DNA from: Candidatus Hydrogenedens sp.
Lineage (GTDB): Bacteria; Hydrogenedentota; Hydrogenedentia; Hydrogenedentales; Hydrogenedentaceae
Length of the DNA stretch: 5,672 bases
NCBI GenBank assembly: GCA_049968235.1
Contig: JBMFRC010000041.1
Location: 1 to 5,672 of the forward strand
Direction: 5' to 3'
Shown here: in pieces, positions 1 to 5,672 of the stretch
Layout of the letters: each line of letters starts with the position of its first letter
Position numbering within the stretch: position 1 is the stretch's first letter
The notes under the pieces: generated by a model
The model's input: the letters and a program-made list of their open reading frames with translations, nothing else
The model's database searches: none
Told to the model about the DNA's origin: nothing
Made by a program: the position numbers and the translations under genes

Positions 1-43
1 ATTTATGCTGAAAAAAATATTTTAAAATTTTTTCATAAAATGC

Positions 44-75
44 TTGACATATGAAAAAAAATGCTAAACTATAGG
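44..75 (+). promoter_or_regulatory. candidate sigma70-like promoter upstream of the cys-rich gene
   Basis: There is a perfect TTGACA -35 hexamer at 44-49. Downstream lies TGcTAAACT at 62-70, which resembles an extended -10, and TATAGG at 70-75 is an alternative -10. Spacing is suboptimal for either. The direct repeat AAAATGCT occurs at 37-44 and 58-65, 21 bp apart, flanking the -35. An AAGGGA Shine-Dalgarno site at 131-136 lies 7 nt before the ATG at 144. Confidence 0.3.
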
Positions 76-143
76 TATTGGAAAGTTGAATAACGAAAGT
101 AGTAGTCAATCAAACCAGAAGCATCAAAATAAGGGAACCTGCC

Positions 144-620
144 ATGCATATCACAAACTTCATCAAAAATTACCCTTGTATACTACTTACATTATTACTA
201 ACCTTAATATCTCCTTTATTTATTTTGAGCGAAACAAAAGTATATGCGTCTACAAAAAATCCTAAAAGCGGAGAATGCGATTGTATTTCTCAAACATCAT
301 GTCCTTATAATTTAACATATGCTATATATGGACTGGAAGGCTTTAAATGTGGACTTATAAATAATCATTGTAAGTGTAATGGTCCAGATCCTCTCAAACA
401 TTGTTCTTACCCAAAAGCAGAACTATGTGCCCCTACATCCGGAGGTTGTAGTTGTAGTAATGATTGCATGCCATCAGATTGTCCCAGGCCATGTTACCCT
501 TCTTCATGTGAAGGATGTAAGGAATACCAATTAAGTACTATTCCCTGTTCAGGGACTCCTGAACCAGGAAATTGTGGAAGATGTAATTACAAATTCAAAC
601 AACCAGGATGCGGACAATAA
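144..620 (+). CDS. small cysteine-rich secreted protein (hypothetical)
   Basis: Complete ORF of 158 aa. An AAGGGA Shine-Dalgarno site lies 7 nt upstream. The N-terminus has a long hydrophobic stretch (ILLTLLLTLISPLFIL) followed by VYA-ST, consistent with a Sec signal peptide. The mature part of about 123 aa contains 19 cysteines (about 15%) in CxC and CxxC arrangements: CDC, CKC, CSC, CEGC and CGRC. I recognise no known family. The stop at 618-620 abuts the next gene. Confidence 0.7.
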   Translation: MHITNFIKNYPCILLTLLLTLISPLFILSETKVYASTKNPKSGECDCISQTSCPYNLTYAIYGLEGFKCGLINNHCKCNGPDPLKHCSYPKAELCAPTSGGCSCSNDCMPSDCPRPCYPSSCEGCKEYQLSTIPCSGTPEPGNCGRCNYKFKQPGCGQ

Positions 621-651
621 CAATGCTATATTAATAGTAAAGAAAAATAAT

Positions 652-2034
652 ATGGAAGTATACAAAAAATTACTTTTTATAGGATTGATATTTTATAGTT
701 CCCTATTTGCACATAGTTTAGAAATATATGAAGTATCTCGGGACAGCCAGGAAGTAAAGAACTTAATCCGTATTGTGAAAACGAGATTTAATGTCTTTTC
801 GTTGAAATGTAATTATACCTCTATTGTTGATGAGGAACCATACATTTCTTATTTTGAAGATAAATATGGGAAATCTATACTTGATGAAAAAAAAGAACAA
901 GCACTATCCATAAAAAATTTTGAATTTGTCTTTCAAAAAGGGAATTTTGTCCGTATTCAAACATATACACCTCCAATAAAAAAATTATCAACAATTGATA
1001 AGCCTAGAAACTTGATAGAATTATTATCTCAAAAATTTACAACTTATCAGCAGGATAGTAATCAGGATAAATTGTTTCAAACTATAAATTATTTTTACAA
1101 CGAGGAATTAAAAACAAGGGATTACTACTATGATAGTATGCTAAATAAATATGCTTATTGGGAGTGTGCACATGACAATGAAGATATGGATCCATATACT
1201 CTTGACCCTCGTATCTGCATTGGACTATGTTCTGGAACCGCGTTTAATTGGGGAAATCTTTGGCCAAAAGAGGGCTTATTTTTCTTTATTGAAGAATTCT
1301 TAGAGAAAGAGGGGATTTTTTTCTATTGTGAAGAAGAATATAAAATTTTTTGGCATTATGTAGTATATGAACATAAAACAAAGTATAAACATGAATCTAA
1401 TTTCAGTTTCTTAGACCCCATTGGTATTGAAATATGGGTTGATAAAAATGAAAACATTTCAAAAATTGCATGTATGTTTTATCCTTGTCGTATTTTAGGA
1501 CTCCAGGAAGTAAAACAAATTATTAATAAAGATACAGAAATAACATATAACACTCCAAGTATTTTATATTGGGAATATCAGTATCAAAACTATAAAGAAT
1601 TCGAAAGTGGAATACGGATTCCGCTAAAAACTACGGTTTTACAATATTCTTTTGATAATGATAATCCATGTTTTCAATCTATTGTAAAAAAATATTTTGA
1701 CACCATTAACAAAACAAAAAATGAAATGGACATAATTAAATATCGTACAGAATTGAGTGCTTGTAATGATATATCTTTTCTATCAAGAAAAATAGAACTC
1801 ACTATATATCCAGAATCAGTAATTGTAAACAAACTAATACCGGAGGAAACATTTATCGCCCCTAAACCTGATATCTCTTTATTCAAAAATATAAATGAAG
1901 CAGAACAGTTTAAAAATAGTATAGAAAGAAACAATTCTTCTTTCCCTTCATATTTGATTTTATCTTTATTTGGTTTAATCATTATTCTTTTTTTAACTTT
2001 CCTTACATATAAATTTTGGAGATGGAGTATTTAA
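652..2034 (+). CDS. hypothetical exported protein with N-terminal signal peptide and C-terminal transmembrane anchor
   Basis: The ORF is open from 574 to 2034. The ATG at 652 is preferred as the start because it yields a classic signal peptide (MEVYKKLLFIGLIFYSSLFAHS) and avoids a 47-nt out-of-frame overlap with the upstream gene. The C-terminus is a hydrophobic helix (YLILSLFGLIIILFLTFLTY) followed by KFWRW. The ectodomain is rich in Tyr, Lys, Glu and Asn with scattered Cys and Trp, and I recognise no domain. There is no Shine-Dalgarno site, but the start lies 31 nt after the upstream stop, which suggests translational coupling within an operon. Confidence 0.7.
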   Translation: MEVYKKLLFIGLIFYSSLFAHSLEIYEVSRDSQEVKNLIRIVKTRFNVFSLKCNYTSIVDEEPYISYFEDKYGKSILDEKKEQALSIKNFEFVFQKGNFVRIQTYTPPIKKLSTIDKPRNLIELLSQKFTTYQQDSNQDKLFQTINYFYNEELKTRDYYYDSMLNKYAYWECAHDNEDMDPYTLDPRICIGLCSGTAFNWGNLWPKEGLFFFIEEFLEKEGIFFYCEEEYKIFWHYVVYEHKTKYKHESNFSFLDPIGIEIWVDKNENISKIACMFYPCRILGLQEVKQIINKDTEITYNTPSILYWEYQYQNYKEFESGIRIPLKTTVLQYSFDNDNPCFQSIVKKYFDTINKTKNEMDIIKYRTELSACNDISFLSRKIELTIYPESVIVNKLIPEETFIAPKPDISLFKNINEAEQFKNSIERNNSSFPSYLILSLFGLIIILFLTFLTYKFWRWSI

Positions 2035-2095
2035 TACATAAGAGATAGTTGAAGAATTCCATTAGAAAAAAAAATGAAAAGGGCTTTCAATAAAG

Positions 2096-2437
2096 ATGTT
2101 TCCTTTTATTAAAATATCGACATATTTTGCAGAATTTTACAACATTTTTAATTTTCTTGCGGTGTTTGTTATTGTTTTATTAGGTGTTCGGTGGAATTAT
2201 AGGTATGGGAAGAAATATCCCTTAAGATTGGGGATGTTGCTTCTGTCAGCACCGTTTGCTTTTCTGATTGACAGGATATTTTTCTTTCTTTTCCTTGCCC
2301 GTCCTTCTTCTAAGATGCAGTTTTTTAATCTGGAGAGAGGGGGAAGTATGTTTTTAGGAGCCTTTACAGGGGCTGTCTTTGGGGCTTTCATCTATAATGT
2401 TTGGGTACATTATGTATATTTTCCGATTTTATCCTGA
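2096..2437 (+). CDS. lgt: Lgt-like (prolipoprotein diacylglyceryl transferase) N-terminal fragment, probably truncated or a pseudogene
   Basis: The 113-aa polytopic membrane ORF resembles Lgt N-terminal regions. It begins FPF near the N-terminus; DRIFFFLFLA compares with ARIYYVLFEW or GRIGYVLFYNF in Lgt, and LERGGSMFLGAFTGAVFGAFIY compares with [22 protein letters not shown]. Spacing between these segments fits Lgt. However, the conserved WYG motif and the His in the GG-x-x-HGG segment are replaced. The ORF stops at about 40% of normal Lgt length. No Lgt-like continuation, including the GRxGNFxNxExxG signature, is found in the three + frames checked downstream. This is recall-based similarity, not a database search. 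Confidence 0.5.
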   Translation: MFPFIKISTYFAEFYNIFNFLAVFVIVLLGVRWNYRYGKKYPLRLGMLLLSAPFAFLIDRIFFFLFLARPSSKMQFFNLERGGSMFLGAFTGAVFGAFIYNVWVHYVYFPILS

Positions 2438-2458
2438 CGGATATATATGGACACATGT

Positions 2459-2474
2459 AAATCTGCAGATTTTT
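2459..2474 (+). terminator. weak palindromic hairpin plus T-run after the lgt-like ORF
   Basis: AAATCTGCAGATTT is a perfect palindrome that can form a short AT-rich stem with a TGCA loop, followed by TT. The stem is weak (about 5 bp, AU-rich) and the U-tract overlaps the stem, so terminator function is doubtful. Confidence 0.15.
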
Positions 2475-2634
2475 CAGAGAGAATGATTATTCGTACTTAT
2501 ATACTCATATTTTTTTATGAAACACAATGGTTCTTATATAAAACCTTCAAATTACCTTATTAAACAAAAAAAATACACAGAACCTAAATAATTTAAAATA
2601 CTGAATATCGTGTAACCATCTCTGCAAAAAAAGA

Positions 2635-2732
2635 GCGGGAACCGCATGGTTTCGCTGTTTATTAGCGGGCTATACCCGTAGCCCGTATAGTCCTGTTCGG
2701 GACTTTGTCGAAACTCTTATAGCAGTTCCCGC
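2635..2732. ncRNA. candidate structured RNA or GC-rich multi-stem element (unclassified)
   Basis: This 98-nt island is markedly more GC-rich than its flanks. Four stems are directly visible. The outer stem is GCGGGAAC (2635-2642) paired with GTTCCCGC (2725-2732), 8 bp. The inner stem is GTTTCG (2649-2654) paired with CGAAAC (2709-2714), 6 bp. Hairpin A is GCGGGCTA (2665-2672) paired with TAGCCCGT (2679-2686), 8 bp including one G-U, with loop TACCCG. Hairpin B is AGTCC (2689-2693) paired with GGACT (2700-2704), 5 bp, with loop TGTTCG. The result is a closed three-way junction inside a stacked outer helix. No ORF covers it. The transcribed strand and the family are unknown. Confidence 0.3.
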
Positions 2733-3068
2733 AAAACTTGTAAAGGCTTTTAACAAACCTTCGTATTCAATTTTCTAATAAAATTATGACACAAAAATAA
2801 AAAAAATGCAAGCAGTTTTTAAAATTTTTTATTCCCAGACTTATTCTTCATCAAAAAGACCTATTGTCCCCAATGATTTTGTATTTCCGAAAGAATTAAC
2901 TCGATTATATCTATCAAAACTTCCTATAGCACTATCACGGTTTCTTGATGGTCCCAAAAAATTCGGAGCATTATAATTATAGTTATTAAGGTTTTCCAAA
3001 GGGTTAGGAATCTTTGTTAAATCATTAATTCTATCTTCAATAGATGGTAGTTTCCAATTATTTTCCCT

Positions 3069-3130
3069 TTCACAATATTTATTATTATAATATACTATTA
3101 TAAATAAATAGAATTTATTTGCAAAAGGAG
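3069..3130 (+). promoter_or_regulatory. candidate promoter and ribosome-binding site for the large surface-protein gene
   Basis: TTCACA at 3069-3074 matches 5 of 6 positions of the -35 consensus. A 16-nt spacer precedes TATACT at 3091-3096, and an alternative TATAAT lies at 3086-3091. A strong Shine-Dalgarno site, AAGGAG at 3125-3130, sits 8 nt upstream of the ATG at 3139. The AT-rich context makes many alternative -10 elements possible. Confidence 0.3.
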
Positions 3131-3138
3131 TTTTGGCA

Positions 3139-5672
3139 ATGAAAAATAAACTGTTTATTTTAATTACATTTTTTATCTTTCTTCTACCCATTACTTCTTA
3201 CCCACTCGTTTGGGAATTTAATGCTGATGAAGGTTGGTCCGCAGGAAGTAATGTGGCAAATTTGCAAACCACAGGGGGATATTTATCTTTCGATACAACA
3301 GGGAGTGACCCAAGTGTTTATACACCTGATAATTTAGGTGTTACTGGTTCCAATTTTCGATTTATACATTTTGATATGGAGTTAAGTGCAACACCGACAC
3401 AAGGTGGACAAATTTATTTCATTACGAATGCAGATGGAGGTTGGGGAGAAGATAAAGTCATATACTTCTCTCCTACGGCAGGTAGAAACACTTATCTTAT
3501 TAATGTTCCCCAAACTATGTCAGCCAATGGAAAAGACCCGAATAAATGGTTGGGGCAAACAATAAAAAGATTAAGATTTGACCCTCCGAACAATTACATT
3601 GGAAATGTAAAAATCTACTGGTTTGGTATCACATTCGGCAGTAATTCACGCGGTGCTGTTTGGGATTTCGAAACAAACGGTGATTTTGAAGGCTGGGGTG
3701 GATTCAGTTGTGCTTCAGGACAACAGGTTACAGGCGGTTACTTAACTTTCAATTTTATCTGTACCGACCCCTTTGTATACTCCCCAAATGATTTAAGAAT
3801 CAGTGGCTCTGATTATCCATGGCTACAGGCGGATATTGAATATACTGCAAGTTATAACGACACTTTTCAGATTTTCTTCATAACAAACATGGATGGAAAT
3901 TGGACTGAAGGGAAATCTATAACTTTCCCCGGAAGAGTAGGTAGATTTACCTATTTAGTCAATATTCCACAAAGGTTAACTGAAAACAGCAAAGACCCTA
4001 ACACCTGGAACGGAAAAACAATAATGCAAATCCGGTTCGATACAGGTGGACAATCATCTGGTAGTGTCAAAATCCACTGGATAGGTATCCGTCGTGAGCC
4101 TATTCCCGATTGGCAATTCGATGTCGGTGACCATAAACAAGGCTGGACTGCTGTAAACCAAATATCAAATCTGACTGTAAGTAGTGGTGCTCTTAGTTGT
4201 AATACCACAGGGGGTGACCCATATATACAAGTTTACAACCAACATTTTAACCCTTCTACATATCGCTATTTATTAGTCCGTGCCAATATTACAAACTACG
4301 AGAATGATAACCCGGGAATTATGCAAACTTTCGGCTTCCCCGGAACCGGCGGAACAGGATATGTTAATAAAGACTACTATTTCTACCCCAACAATGGTTA
4401 TCAATGCATTCTCGTTGATATGGGAACACGCACTACTAACTCTTCCTGGTTAGGGGCTCCAGGAACTATTTCTTCCTTCCGCATTGACCCTGCAACTGTG
4501 AATACCTCTGCTACTTTCTATTATGACTATATTAAGTTATATGATTCATCCTCTCTACCTGCAGGTCCGTATAATTGGGACTTCTCAACTGCCGGAAACA
4601 ATAATTTATCCGGAAATAACTGCGGTAGTTGGGTTTCTGCCCGGCATTCACCCTATAGCGGAACTTCATTGAGTATTGCCAGTAATGTAGGTATCATAAC
4701 CGGCACCGGAACACTCGGAATAGAAAACCTCGGCTTTGCTGTAGGAAATACTTCCGCTTATCAATGGGTTCAAATTGATGTGAATCCATCTACACAAACA
4801 GATAGAAATGATTTGACTTTCCGTTATTTATGGAGAAAGGATGGACTTCGGTTAGGCGATGATTACAACACGCGAAGAAAATGGATTATTCCAACCAATA
4901 AAGGAATAAAACGCTATAATTTTTATCTCCCATACATTGCAGACCAGGATACAAACCATAATGGTACATGGGATGGCATCCCCCATGGAATATTACTCCA
5001 ATTTGGTGAAGGAGAAGCAGGTATTAATTCTATTACTATTGATAATTTCAACCTTCTTTCCTCTGCAAGCGTTCCTGCACCATCTGTATCTGAAGTTAAA
5101 GTTTCAGGAACAAGAACTGTCGATGTTTCCTTTACAAATCAAATGGATTCCAGCACCATTACTGCCTCAATGTTTACAATTTCAGGAACAGGAAGAGGCA
5201 CCTTAGGAGCAAATCCTTTCAGCGTTACATATCTTACAGGACATACTTATCGTTTGACCTGGATTGCAGGAGAAATGCGTGACGGTAGCGATATTACCAT
5301 AACTGTATCGAATTCTGTACAAGACGCTGCAGGAAGAAATTTAACATCTCCCACAAGCGGAACTCATACCGGTGGTGGTATAAAAATAGATGCCCCTACT
5401 GTCTCTGCTGTAACCTCTCCCGCTTTTGCAAATACATTGCCCATAACAATTAGTTATACGGGTGCTGCAGACAATACAAGCAATGTTAGTAGCATAGAAC
5501 TATGGGCTAAAAAAGGTTCCGAAGGAACCTGGGCTTTTACAGGTCAAACATCTGTTTCTGCCCCCAATGGAAGTATCAATTTCAATAGTCCCACAGGAGA
5601 AGATACATACTACTTTGATGTTGTGGTAATTGATGGTGCCGGTAATCGGAGCGATACTCCTACGGGAAATGG
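3139..5672 (+). CDS. large secreted repetitive surface protein (adhesin or glycan-binding-like), 3' partial and continuing beyond the window
   Basis: The frame is open from the ATG at 3139 to the window end, so at least 844 codons, and it has an optimal Shine-Dalgarno site. The N-terminus MKNKLFILITFFIFLLPITSYP is a typical signal peptide. There are four tandem modules of about 140-160 aa. Each begins with a W-(E/D)-F motif and ends with a segment such as IYWFGI, IHWIGI, IKLY or IDNFNL. Modules 1 and 2 are clearly homologous (GGYLSFDTTGSDPSVYTPDNL compares with GGYLTFNFICTDPFVYSPNDL, and GRNTYLINVPQ...KDPNKW...RFD compares with GRFTYLVNIPQ...KDPNTW...RFD). These are followed by at least two Ig-like modules of about 100 aa (for example TYYFDVVVIDGAGNRS). 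The composition is rich in Gly, Thr, Ser and Asn. The C-terminal sorting signal cannot be seen. Confidence 0.85.
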   Translation, partial: MKNKLFILITFFIFLLPITSYPLVWEFNADEGWSAGSNVANLQTTGGYLSFDTTGSDPSVYTPDNLGVTGSNFRFIHFDMELSATPTQGGQIYFITNADGGWGEDKVIYFSPTAGRNTYLINVPQTMSANGKDPNKWLGQTIKRLRFDPPNNYIGNVKIYWFGITFGSNSRGAVWDFETNGDFEGWGGFSCASGQQVTGGYLTFNFICTDPFVYSPNDLRISGSDYPWLQADIEYTASYNDTFQIFFITNMDGNWTEGKSITFPGRVGRFTYLVNIPQRLTENSKDPNTWNGKTIMQIRFDTGGQSSGSVKIHWIGIRREPIPDWQFDVGDHKQGWTAVNQISNLTVSSGALSCNTTGGDPYIQVYNQHFNPSTYRYLLVRANITNYENDNPGIMQTFGFPGTGGTGYVNKDYYFYPNNGYQCILVDMGTRTTNSSWLGAPGTISSFRIDPATVNTSATFYYDYIKLYDSSSLPAGPYNWDFSTAGNNNLSGNNCGSWVSARHSPYSGTSLSIASNVGIITGTGTLGIENLGFAVGNTSAYQWVQIDVNPSTQTDRNDLTFRYLWRKDGLRLGDDYNTRRKWIIPTNKGIKRYNFYLPYIADQDTNHNGTWDGIPHGILLQFGEGEAGINSITIDNFNLLSSASVPAPSVSEVKVSGTRTVDVSFTNQMDSSTITASMFTISGTGRGTLGANPFSVTYLTGHTYRLTWIAGEMRDGSDITITVSNSVQDAAGRNLTSPTSGTHTGGGIKIDAPTVSAVTSPAFANTLPITISYTGAADNTSNVSSIELWAKKGSEGTWAFTGQTSVSAPNGSINFNSPTGEDTYYFDVVVIDGAGNRSDTPTGN
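3208..5055 (+). repeat. intragenic tandem domain duplication (four modules, R1 to R4) at protein level
   Basis: R1 is 3208-3630, R2 is 3658-4089, R3 is 4108-4542 and R4 is 4570-5055. R1 and R2 share an estimated 35-40% identity judged by eye across the full module. R3 and R4 are more divergent but keep the W-x-F ... GW ... GDP start and the hydrophobic end motif. The DNA-level repeat is weak; the duplication is ancient. Confidence 0.55.

Follow-up and report, generated by a model that had tools for sequence, protein, structure and literature searches.

Remnant of a cassette-borne Lgt-family gene in Candidatus Hydrogenedens: most probably a pseudogene stump

What remains of a gene when an open reading frame (ORF) resembles only the beginning of Lgt, an enzyme of lipoprotein maturation, and then stops? 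This is the question raised by positions 2096-2437 on the forward strand of a 5,672-nucleotide (nt) stretch of DNA from Candidatus Hydrogenedens sp. (Hydrogenedentota; GenBank assembly GCA_049968235.1, contig JBMFRC010000041.1), referred to throughout, at its full length, as the window. A preliminary description made from the letters alone took this ORF for the remnant of a decaying duplicate, with the essential housekeeping lgt gene as its ancestor and a neofunctionalised small membrane protein as the alternative, and suggested as checks a search with the Pfam model of the family, a tblastn search downstream for frameshifted remnants and a comparison with related genomes. Here, we argue that the ORF is most probably a non-functional pseudogene stump of an Lgt-family paralogue specific to Hydrogenedentes, whose ancestor would have been the last gene of a three-gene cassette, namely ORF1, ORF2 and the Lgt-like enzyme, served by one promoter, until all that followed codon 100 was lost, through deletion or illegitimate recombination, and unrelated, AT-rich DNA came to lie directly behind that codon, with translation then running through 13 more codons to a stop. 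Related loci and proteins are identified by L and P numbers.

Taken alone, the direct match of the stump to the Lgt family is suggestive. Residues 12-101 align with positions 11-101 of the 240-position Pfam LGT profile (PF01790) at an E value of 0.0047 and 16.7 bits, which falls below the gathering score of 24.9 bits, and no full-length match above that score is obtained; an NCBIfam scan of the stump, ORF1, ORF2 and a minus-strand ORF further downstream gave zero matches, and a phmmer search of the stump against PDB sequences returned a chance match of 20 amino acids (aa) and nothing else. The closer relatives are more telling. A search of 5.8 billion proteins found the ORF itself, deposited as a ‘hypothetical protein’ of a Candidatus Hydrogenedens metagenome-assembled genome (MAG), together with five relatives, of which four carry a precomputed PF01790 match, at 59-72% identity across the first ~100 residues, and a scan of one genome per species added ten further loci, so that residues 1-100 can be compared with 15 or more relatives at 53-78% identity (E 6e-39 against P0002, for instance, and 66% identity over 100 aa with the L007 protein). 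Complete relatives are 268-280 aa long (L007, L008, L010, L011, L012, L025 and P0014), and the three scanned at full length (L007, L010 and L011) cover PF01790 positions 6-238 of 240 with E values of 3.6e-34 to 8.5e-37 and 118-127 bits. Because its 53-78% identical relatives match the family at full length at about 1e-35, the homology of the stump to the N-terminal ~100 residues of Lgt-family proteins is, on these alignments, secure. The in-order N-terminal match first described therefore stands, and the N-terminal part alone aligns to the Pfam model, at ~100 rather than the proposed ~110 residues. An AlphaFold2 (AF2) model of the stump, with a predicted local distance difference test score (pLDDT) of 71.8, places strands at residues 4-13 and helices at 14-36, 45-66, 70-77 and 84-112, which corresponds to a beta-hairpin, the first two transmembrane (TM) helices, a short helix and, as far as codon 100, the start of TM3; the sole match of this model in a Foldseek search of the PDB, which is not significant, is the E. 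coli Lgt structure 5AZB (E 4, prob 0.13, query TM-score (TMq) 0.39).

The preliminary description read replaced motif residues as decay, and here the observation holds but the interpretation does not. An intact relative was aligned to E. coli Lgt (5AZB) for residue equivalence. In E. coli, His103 is important and has been proposed as the catalytic histidine, while R143, N146, Y235 and R239 are needed for activity (PMC8689077). In place of the His103-Gly-Gly-Leu motif the stump has GGSMFLGAF, with leucine at the histidine position, and this leucine is common to all members of the family, intact or not; intact relatives further carry cysteine for both Asn146 and Glu151, giving the box GRLGCFCxGCCYG, and retain R143, HPxQLYE, Y235, R239 and E243 (as aspartate). 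Since every intact member shares the leucine, its presence in the stump is no sign of decay, and the ‘degenerate motifs’ are, to judge from these alignments, a trait of the whole intact paralogue family. Likewise, only the W and the G of the W-Y-G motif of the first helix are replaced, the tyrosine being kept as Tyr15, which is invariant in the family and aligns with the tyrosine of SYG/SFG in other Lgt-family proteins. The box GRLGCFxxGCCxG and the lack of His103 recur in more distant proteins of other phyla that carry an Lgt annotation. Among His103, R143, N146, Y235 and R239, only the His103 position falls within the first 100 residues; the equivalents of R143, Y235, R239, E243 and HPSQLYE all lie beyond residue 100, present in full-length relatives and absent from the stump. 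With every residue of the lipid-headgroup pocket missing, the stump product, if made, would be a 3-TM peptide incapable of transferase activity.

Homology ends at nt 2395, at residue Tyr100, in all DNA and protein alignments (L005, L009, L023, L025, L026, L027 and others). Residues 101-113 (NVWVHYVYFPILS) are unrelated to any relative, and window positions 2396-2612 match nothing among the fetched loci by blastn. That the ORF stops at 2437 without continuation was correctly seen: the ~700 nt 3' of it hold no credible coding potential, the signature box G-R-x-G-N-F-x-N-x-E is absent from the stump and unmatched in any downstream frame, and when full-length relatives are compared by tblastn with every frame of both strands of the window, no trace of the C-terminal part appears, frameshifted or otherwise (best other match, E 0.75). 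As homology resumes in no downstream frame, the truncation is a breakpoint and not a frameshift or nonsense mutation, and with the 3' two thirds lost from a gene that is full-length in relatives, the term remnant is apt. The identical allele and junction occur in L016 (GCA_049971155.1; 99.8% identity over window 1-3807) and in L017 (GCA_049969095.1; 99.94% identity over window 1-3299), which with the window make three separately deposited MAG assemblies. Searching the sequence against itself for microhomology or duplication around the junction gave nothing informative, and the junction is not at a repeat. In L003 and L004 the gene breaks after Phe95, 15 nt 5' of the window breakpoint, and both breakpoints follow closely on the best-conserved DNA block within the gene (GGAAGTATGTTTTTAGGGGCGTTTACAGGGGG), which we infer to be a favoured recombination site.

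Which gene was truncated becomes apparent from the context of its relatives. At every locus the Lgt-like gene is preceded by a homologue of ORF2 (22-42% identical to the window ORF2) and usually also by a small cysteine-rich ORF1; it starts 25-105 nt after ORF2 across cassettes, and 61 nt after the ORF2 stop in the window, where all elements of the cassette are present in order and the Lgt-like gene alone is incomplete. Even P0029, the most distant clade member found (43% identical), stands behind three tandem ORF1/ORF2 units. The family occurs in two to three or more copies per genome, in differing neighbourhoods rather than in a single-copy housekeeping context. Because it is multi-copy and always behind the ORF1/ORF2 cassette, the ancestor of the stump appears to be a cassette-specific Lgt-family paralogue and not, as first supposed, the essential housekeeping lgt.

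Comparison with related genomes reveals a graded series of decay. Cassettes are single or in tandem, and across loci their Lgt-like gene is found in four states, listed with the window features in Table 1. At the junction where L004 keeps 95 codons, L009, 93% identical in the flanking ORF2, keeps 9 nt; such stumps are therefore dispensable. The frameshifts of L023/24 are seen in two single-cell assemblies, in which ORF1 also has a stop codon, and L025 is an intact counterpart of the frameshifted L005. In L002, L005 and L013 three independent single-base frameshifts lie at codons ~83-105 in homopolymer runs (A5, G5 and T4/A3), and may be genuine slippage mutations or, in contigs of low coverage, sequencing errors. 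Some paralogues are mosaic: the Lgt-like proteins of L007 and L012, from the same genome (CAZJTZ01), are almost identical in their C-terminal ~130 residues and differ in their N-terminal parts, and L003 is identical to L004 from ~codon 80 onwards, stump tail included, with upstream parts orthologous to two different paralogues (L009 and L010), which suggests gene conversion between cassettes. Nextera adapter (…AGATGTGTATAAGAGACAG) stands at the ends of two public contigs (L003 1-38 and 624-661; L004 2-72 and 1554-1624), which must therefore have been assembled from untrimmed reads; the internal junctions of L003 and L004 used here are far from these ends.

Redundancy is visible within a single assembly, since GCA_049971155.1 has the stump on L016 and an intact paralogue, P0012, on L018, which continues 3' into the promoter and ORF1 of a further cassette. 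The loss of the window gene may thus have been tolerated, with intact paralogues of other cassettes acting in trans on ORF1 and ORF2. P0012 itself (L018 1230-2327, 365 aa) has lost its normal stop, and ~95 codons of read-through cover the spacer, the next promoter and leader and the beginning of the ORF1 that follows; the 365-aa ‘Lgt’ of the annotation is a read-through product.

Several observations count against the pseudogene reading and are best weighed together. The frame is open over 113 codons, with a purine-rich stretch 5' of its ATG and in an apparently intact operon, and a peptide may well be made from it; in the AF2 model the hydrophobic new tail completes a TM3-like helix. The pairwise ratio of non-synonymous to synonymous substitution rates (dN/dS) between the stump and its nearest relative is 0.16, so most of the divergence accrued under purifying selection; with dS saturated (0.9 to above 3) and the three-point branch estimates unstable, the truncation may be recent or the N-terminal part still constrained. 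The intact paralogue is known from the 99.8%-identical sister MAG and not from the window's own assembly, and the window ends, at 5672, inside a large ORF, beyond which the 3' part of the gene could lie.

The retained frame, operon position and purine-rich stretch, the low dN/dS and the coherent model of a beta-hairpin and three helices are what one would expect if the stump had become a functional, neofunctionalised small 3-TM membrane protein, for example a modulator or scaffold for intact Lgt-like paralogues or for ORF2, and the stumps of similar length (95 codons) in L003 and L004 point the same way. We nevertheless regard such a protein as unlikely. The short form is confined to strains that are 99.8-99.94% identical; in L003 and L004 the breakpoint falls 15 nt sooner and the tail differs, which leaves no conserved short isoform, and in a 93%-identical strain the stump is missing at the orthologous junction. 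I12A, G44R and G93A, which affect sites that 13 relatives keep invariant, are peculiar to the window copy, and this copy also has the charged G59D and C69R inside TM2; G44R, G59D and C69R are radical replacements at otherwise invariant positions, and the single difference from L017 within the ORF (E13K) is non-synonymous.

That the gene is merely interrupted, an insertion of more than 3.2 kb or a rearrangement having split codons 1-100 from a remainder that lies beyond the window or elsewhere, is very unlikely. The large ORF cut by the window's end leaves room for it, and C-terminal-only Lgt-like ORFs do occur in other genomes, P0026 of L023/24 being an example; however, P0026 arose by frameshifts inside one contiguous gene and not by a split, no mobile-element genes were found in the downstream DNA, and the block 2613-5672 is a conserved chromosomal neighbourhood that no Lgt-like gene adjoins in L019-L022. 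Least likely of all is an artefact, whether a chimeric assembly join at a repeat or an indel error, as the multi-copy family, contigs that break off at the edges of cassettes (the window and L005 each begin within the leader) and possibly erroneous homopolymer frameshifts in several relatives could invite, because an assembly chimera is made unlikely by a junction that is shared by three assemblies and is not at a repeat, and an indel cannot explain homology that continues in no downstream frame.

Table 1. Coordinates of the features in the window, and states of the Lgt-like gene at related loci
Feature	Position (nt) or loci	Strand	Basis or remark
Cassette promoter and 5' leader	37..143	+	conservation across cassettes, alignment A3
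Cassette ORF1, 158-aa secreted protein, 20 Cys, hypervariable	144..620	+	homologues at the same position in L014, L009, L015, L012
Cassette ORF2, 460 aa: signal peptide, LolA/LolB-fold domain, C-terminal TM anchor	652..2034	+	
Lgt-like stump ORF	2096-2437	+	ATG start, 113 codons
Part of the stump with homology (codons 1-100, cassette-type Lgt-family gene)	2096..2395	+	alignments, Pfam LGT
Read-through tail, 13 codons (NVWVHYVYFPILS) and stop	2396..2437	+	dissimilar to relatives in any frame
AT-rich spacer, window lineage only	2438..2612	.	sensitive blastn against all fetched loci gives noise only
Candidate small-RNA gene	~2812 -> ~2628 (core 2732 -> 2635)	-	promoter, fold, conservation
Second gene stump, C-terminal 74 codons of a ~300-aa secreted-protein gene	2841..3062 (ORF 2841-3191)	-	tblastn
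Lgt-like gene intact	L018, L026/27		
Lgt-like gene frameshifted	L023/24, L013, L005, L002		
Lgt-like gene a 95-codon stump, then the next cassette's promoter	L003, L004		
Lgt-like gene reduced to its first 9-13 nt	L009, L010, L012		

The cassette to which the stump belongs begins with TTGACA, a ~17-nt spacer and a TG-extended TAAACT (TGcTAAACT), followed by a ~85-nt leader and an AAGGGA/AAGGAG Shine-Dalgarno sequence before ORF1. This element of ~110-140 nt is 80-91% identical between cassettes whose coding parts are ~70% identical, and from its strong, near-consensus promoter of the sigma-70 type ORF1, ORF2 and the stump are presumably transcribed together, in which case the stump would probably still be co-transcribed with its two intact neighbours. 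The ORF1 homologues have 13-20 cysteines in ~120 mature residues and a conserved N-terminal signal (M-x-I-x-N-F-I-K-N-Y-P ... KVYA), are otherwise hypervariable, and ORF1 has no match in Pfam or NCBIfam. For ORF2 (460-486 aa, the NCBI start call being GTG 574) an ordinary homologous-protein search returned only ORF2 itself, and an exhaustive representative search found just 32 representatives among 1.84 billion cluster representatives; the AF2 model built from this 32-representative alignment is confident (pLDDT 84.6, predicted TM-score (pTM) 0.77), and the TM helix at the C-terminus is followed by [KRH][KRH]Y[FLW]GW[GS]x. At the sequence level ORF2 has no match in Pfam, NCBIfam or, by profile against PDB sequences, the PDB. 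For the cassette as a whole, Pfam and NCBIfam offer nothing beyond LGT itself, and a literature search on Lgt paralogues, Hydrogenedentes lipoproteins and modules combining Lgt, LolA and cysteine-rich proteins gave nothing relevant.

To the right of the spacer, window positions 2613-5672 form a separate conserved block, present in L019-L022, that runs from a candidate small RNA on the minus strand through the stump of a ~300-aa gene to a large secreted protein in which a Big_5 domain is present. On the left, similarity to L019-L022 begins at 2613-2627, and left of ~2613 each locus has a different neighbour; the G+C content is 0.26-0.33 in the cassette versus 0.38-0.43 to its right. The ~300-aa gene is intact in L019 (6090-6992), L020 and L021, and ~700 nt of its 5' part are missing from the window, where L019 6085-6786 has no counterpart; what is left is aa 43-116 of the minus-strand ORF (66-70% identity by tblastn), and the 56-aa ORF called by NCBI on the plus strand at 2806-2976 is probably spurious. 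This second stump lies ~400 nt from the Lgt-like one. Because the neighbouring gene is also truncated, the region seems prone to deletion, and a synteny breakpoint with a gene stump on either side is in keeping with an accessory, deletion- and rearrangement-prone region. Together with a lineage-specific, multi-copy and often disrupted family, this bears out the accessory character that the preliminary description had proposed.

The candidate small RNA has a conserved -35 element (TTGCAT), a 17-nt spacer and a TG-extended -10 element (TGTGTCATAAT), and its predicted transcript of ~155 nt comprises a small 5' hairpin and a 98-nt GC-rich core and ends in 6-7 U. The core, whose folding z-score is about -4, contains P1 (GCGGGAAC/GUUCCCGC), P2 and two hairpins, and is invariant in five loci (the window and L019-L022), compared with 69-75% identity in the neighbouring ORF; conservation drops sharply directly after the U run. 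As the stems do not vary across these five loci, they yield no covariation. Rfam gave nothing credible for the whole window (E<=1) or for 2580-2860 (E<=10), and ARAGORN found no tRNA or tmRNA in the window. The core of an integron attC site has the form GTTRRRY. We considered whether the GC-rich palindromic island at 2635-2732 could be such a site or the end of a mobile element and rejected this by eye, because its stem ends in GTTCCCG and the island lies inside a conserved chromosomal block that has a promoter and a terminator of its own. The cassette leader and the candidate small RNA begin alike: the ~25 nt that are transcribed first in the former (TTATTGGAAA[AG]TTGAATAA, arms TTATT/AATAA) are met again at the beginning of the latter, the leader-like stretch at window 2782-2759 being 96% identical to L025 4642-4666, and may represent a shared operator or initial transcribed sequence.

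On the other side of the cassette, L016 (1-1528) and L017 (1-1496) are alike for ~340 nt upstream of the window start and wholly different beyond, L016 having a fucose-isomerase-like gene and L017 a response regulator; hairpin motifs of the type CACAAGC-AAGATT-GCTTGTG recur in this upstream region. Either the cassette occupies two places or one of the two contigs is chimeric.

What follows from this for annotation is simple: the stump should not be called lgt, nor be taken as a capacity for lipoprotein maturation. In itself it is a minor find, an ordinary pseudogene of a Pfam family that reflects gene decay in a multi-copy accessory cassette. Its use is as a marker, since it led to a lineage-specific multi-copy cassette that is, with the candidate small RNA, of more interest than the stump. 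It also shows that His103 and Asn146, ‘invariant’ in the textbook sense, are replaced in a large and apparently functional branch of the Lgt family, so that a lost motif should not by itself be taken for decay. The pairing of an Lgt-like enzyme with a LolA-fold protein and a cysteine-rich secreted protein suggests a dedicated system for protein lipidation and handling in this uncultivated phylum, and it is possible, if doubtful, that Hydrogenedentes possess an undescribed three-component lipidation module, of which the stump marks one unit. If so, an Lgt-family enzyme with a cysteine-rich box (GRLGCFCxGCCYG, lacking His103 and Asn146) would lipidate the ORF1 protein or ORF2, and the membrane-anchored LolA/LolB-fold ORF2 would hold acyl chains; the enzyme would act in trans across units, many of which have no working Lgt-like gene, and the stump would then reflect division of labour and not the loss of a pathway.

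Among known systems, the cassette can be compared with the LolA/LolB superfamily, relative to which ORF2, at ~460 aa, has an extra N-terminal part and a C-terminal TM anchor and lacks a sequence-level match. The stump resembles Lgt (PF01790; E. coli 5AZB/5AZC) in that it aligns in order with the profile and retains the GR of TM2 as well as a tyrosine that corresponds to Tyr26 of the E. coli enzyme, and its full-length relatives match the whole profile and keep the pocket residues and HPxQLYE described above; unlike Lgt, however, the stump has three of seven TM helices and none of the headgroup-pocket residues, and intact family members carry leucine for His103 and cysteine for Asn146 and Glu151 in a multi-copy, cassette-linked gene rather than a single-copy housekeeping one. 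A ‘GRxGCFxxGCCxG’ subgroup of the Lgt family (P0031-P0085, from many phyla, including Longimicrobiales) shares the cysteine-type box, with tyrosine or leucine at the His103 position, and we know of no biochemistry on it; its members are single genes at 27-38% identity, whereas the Hydrogenedentes clade is 43-100% identical and tied to ORF1/ORF2 cassettes. The stump itself also has a parallel in those left at tandem-duplication or deletion junctions in multi-copy surface-protein arrays. Unlike such stumps, and unlike L003 and L004, it abuts unrelated single-copy DNA instead of the next cassette, but here too the closing gene of a repeat unit has left a 5' fragment behind, and the relatives show a graded series of shorter stumps.
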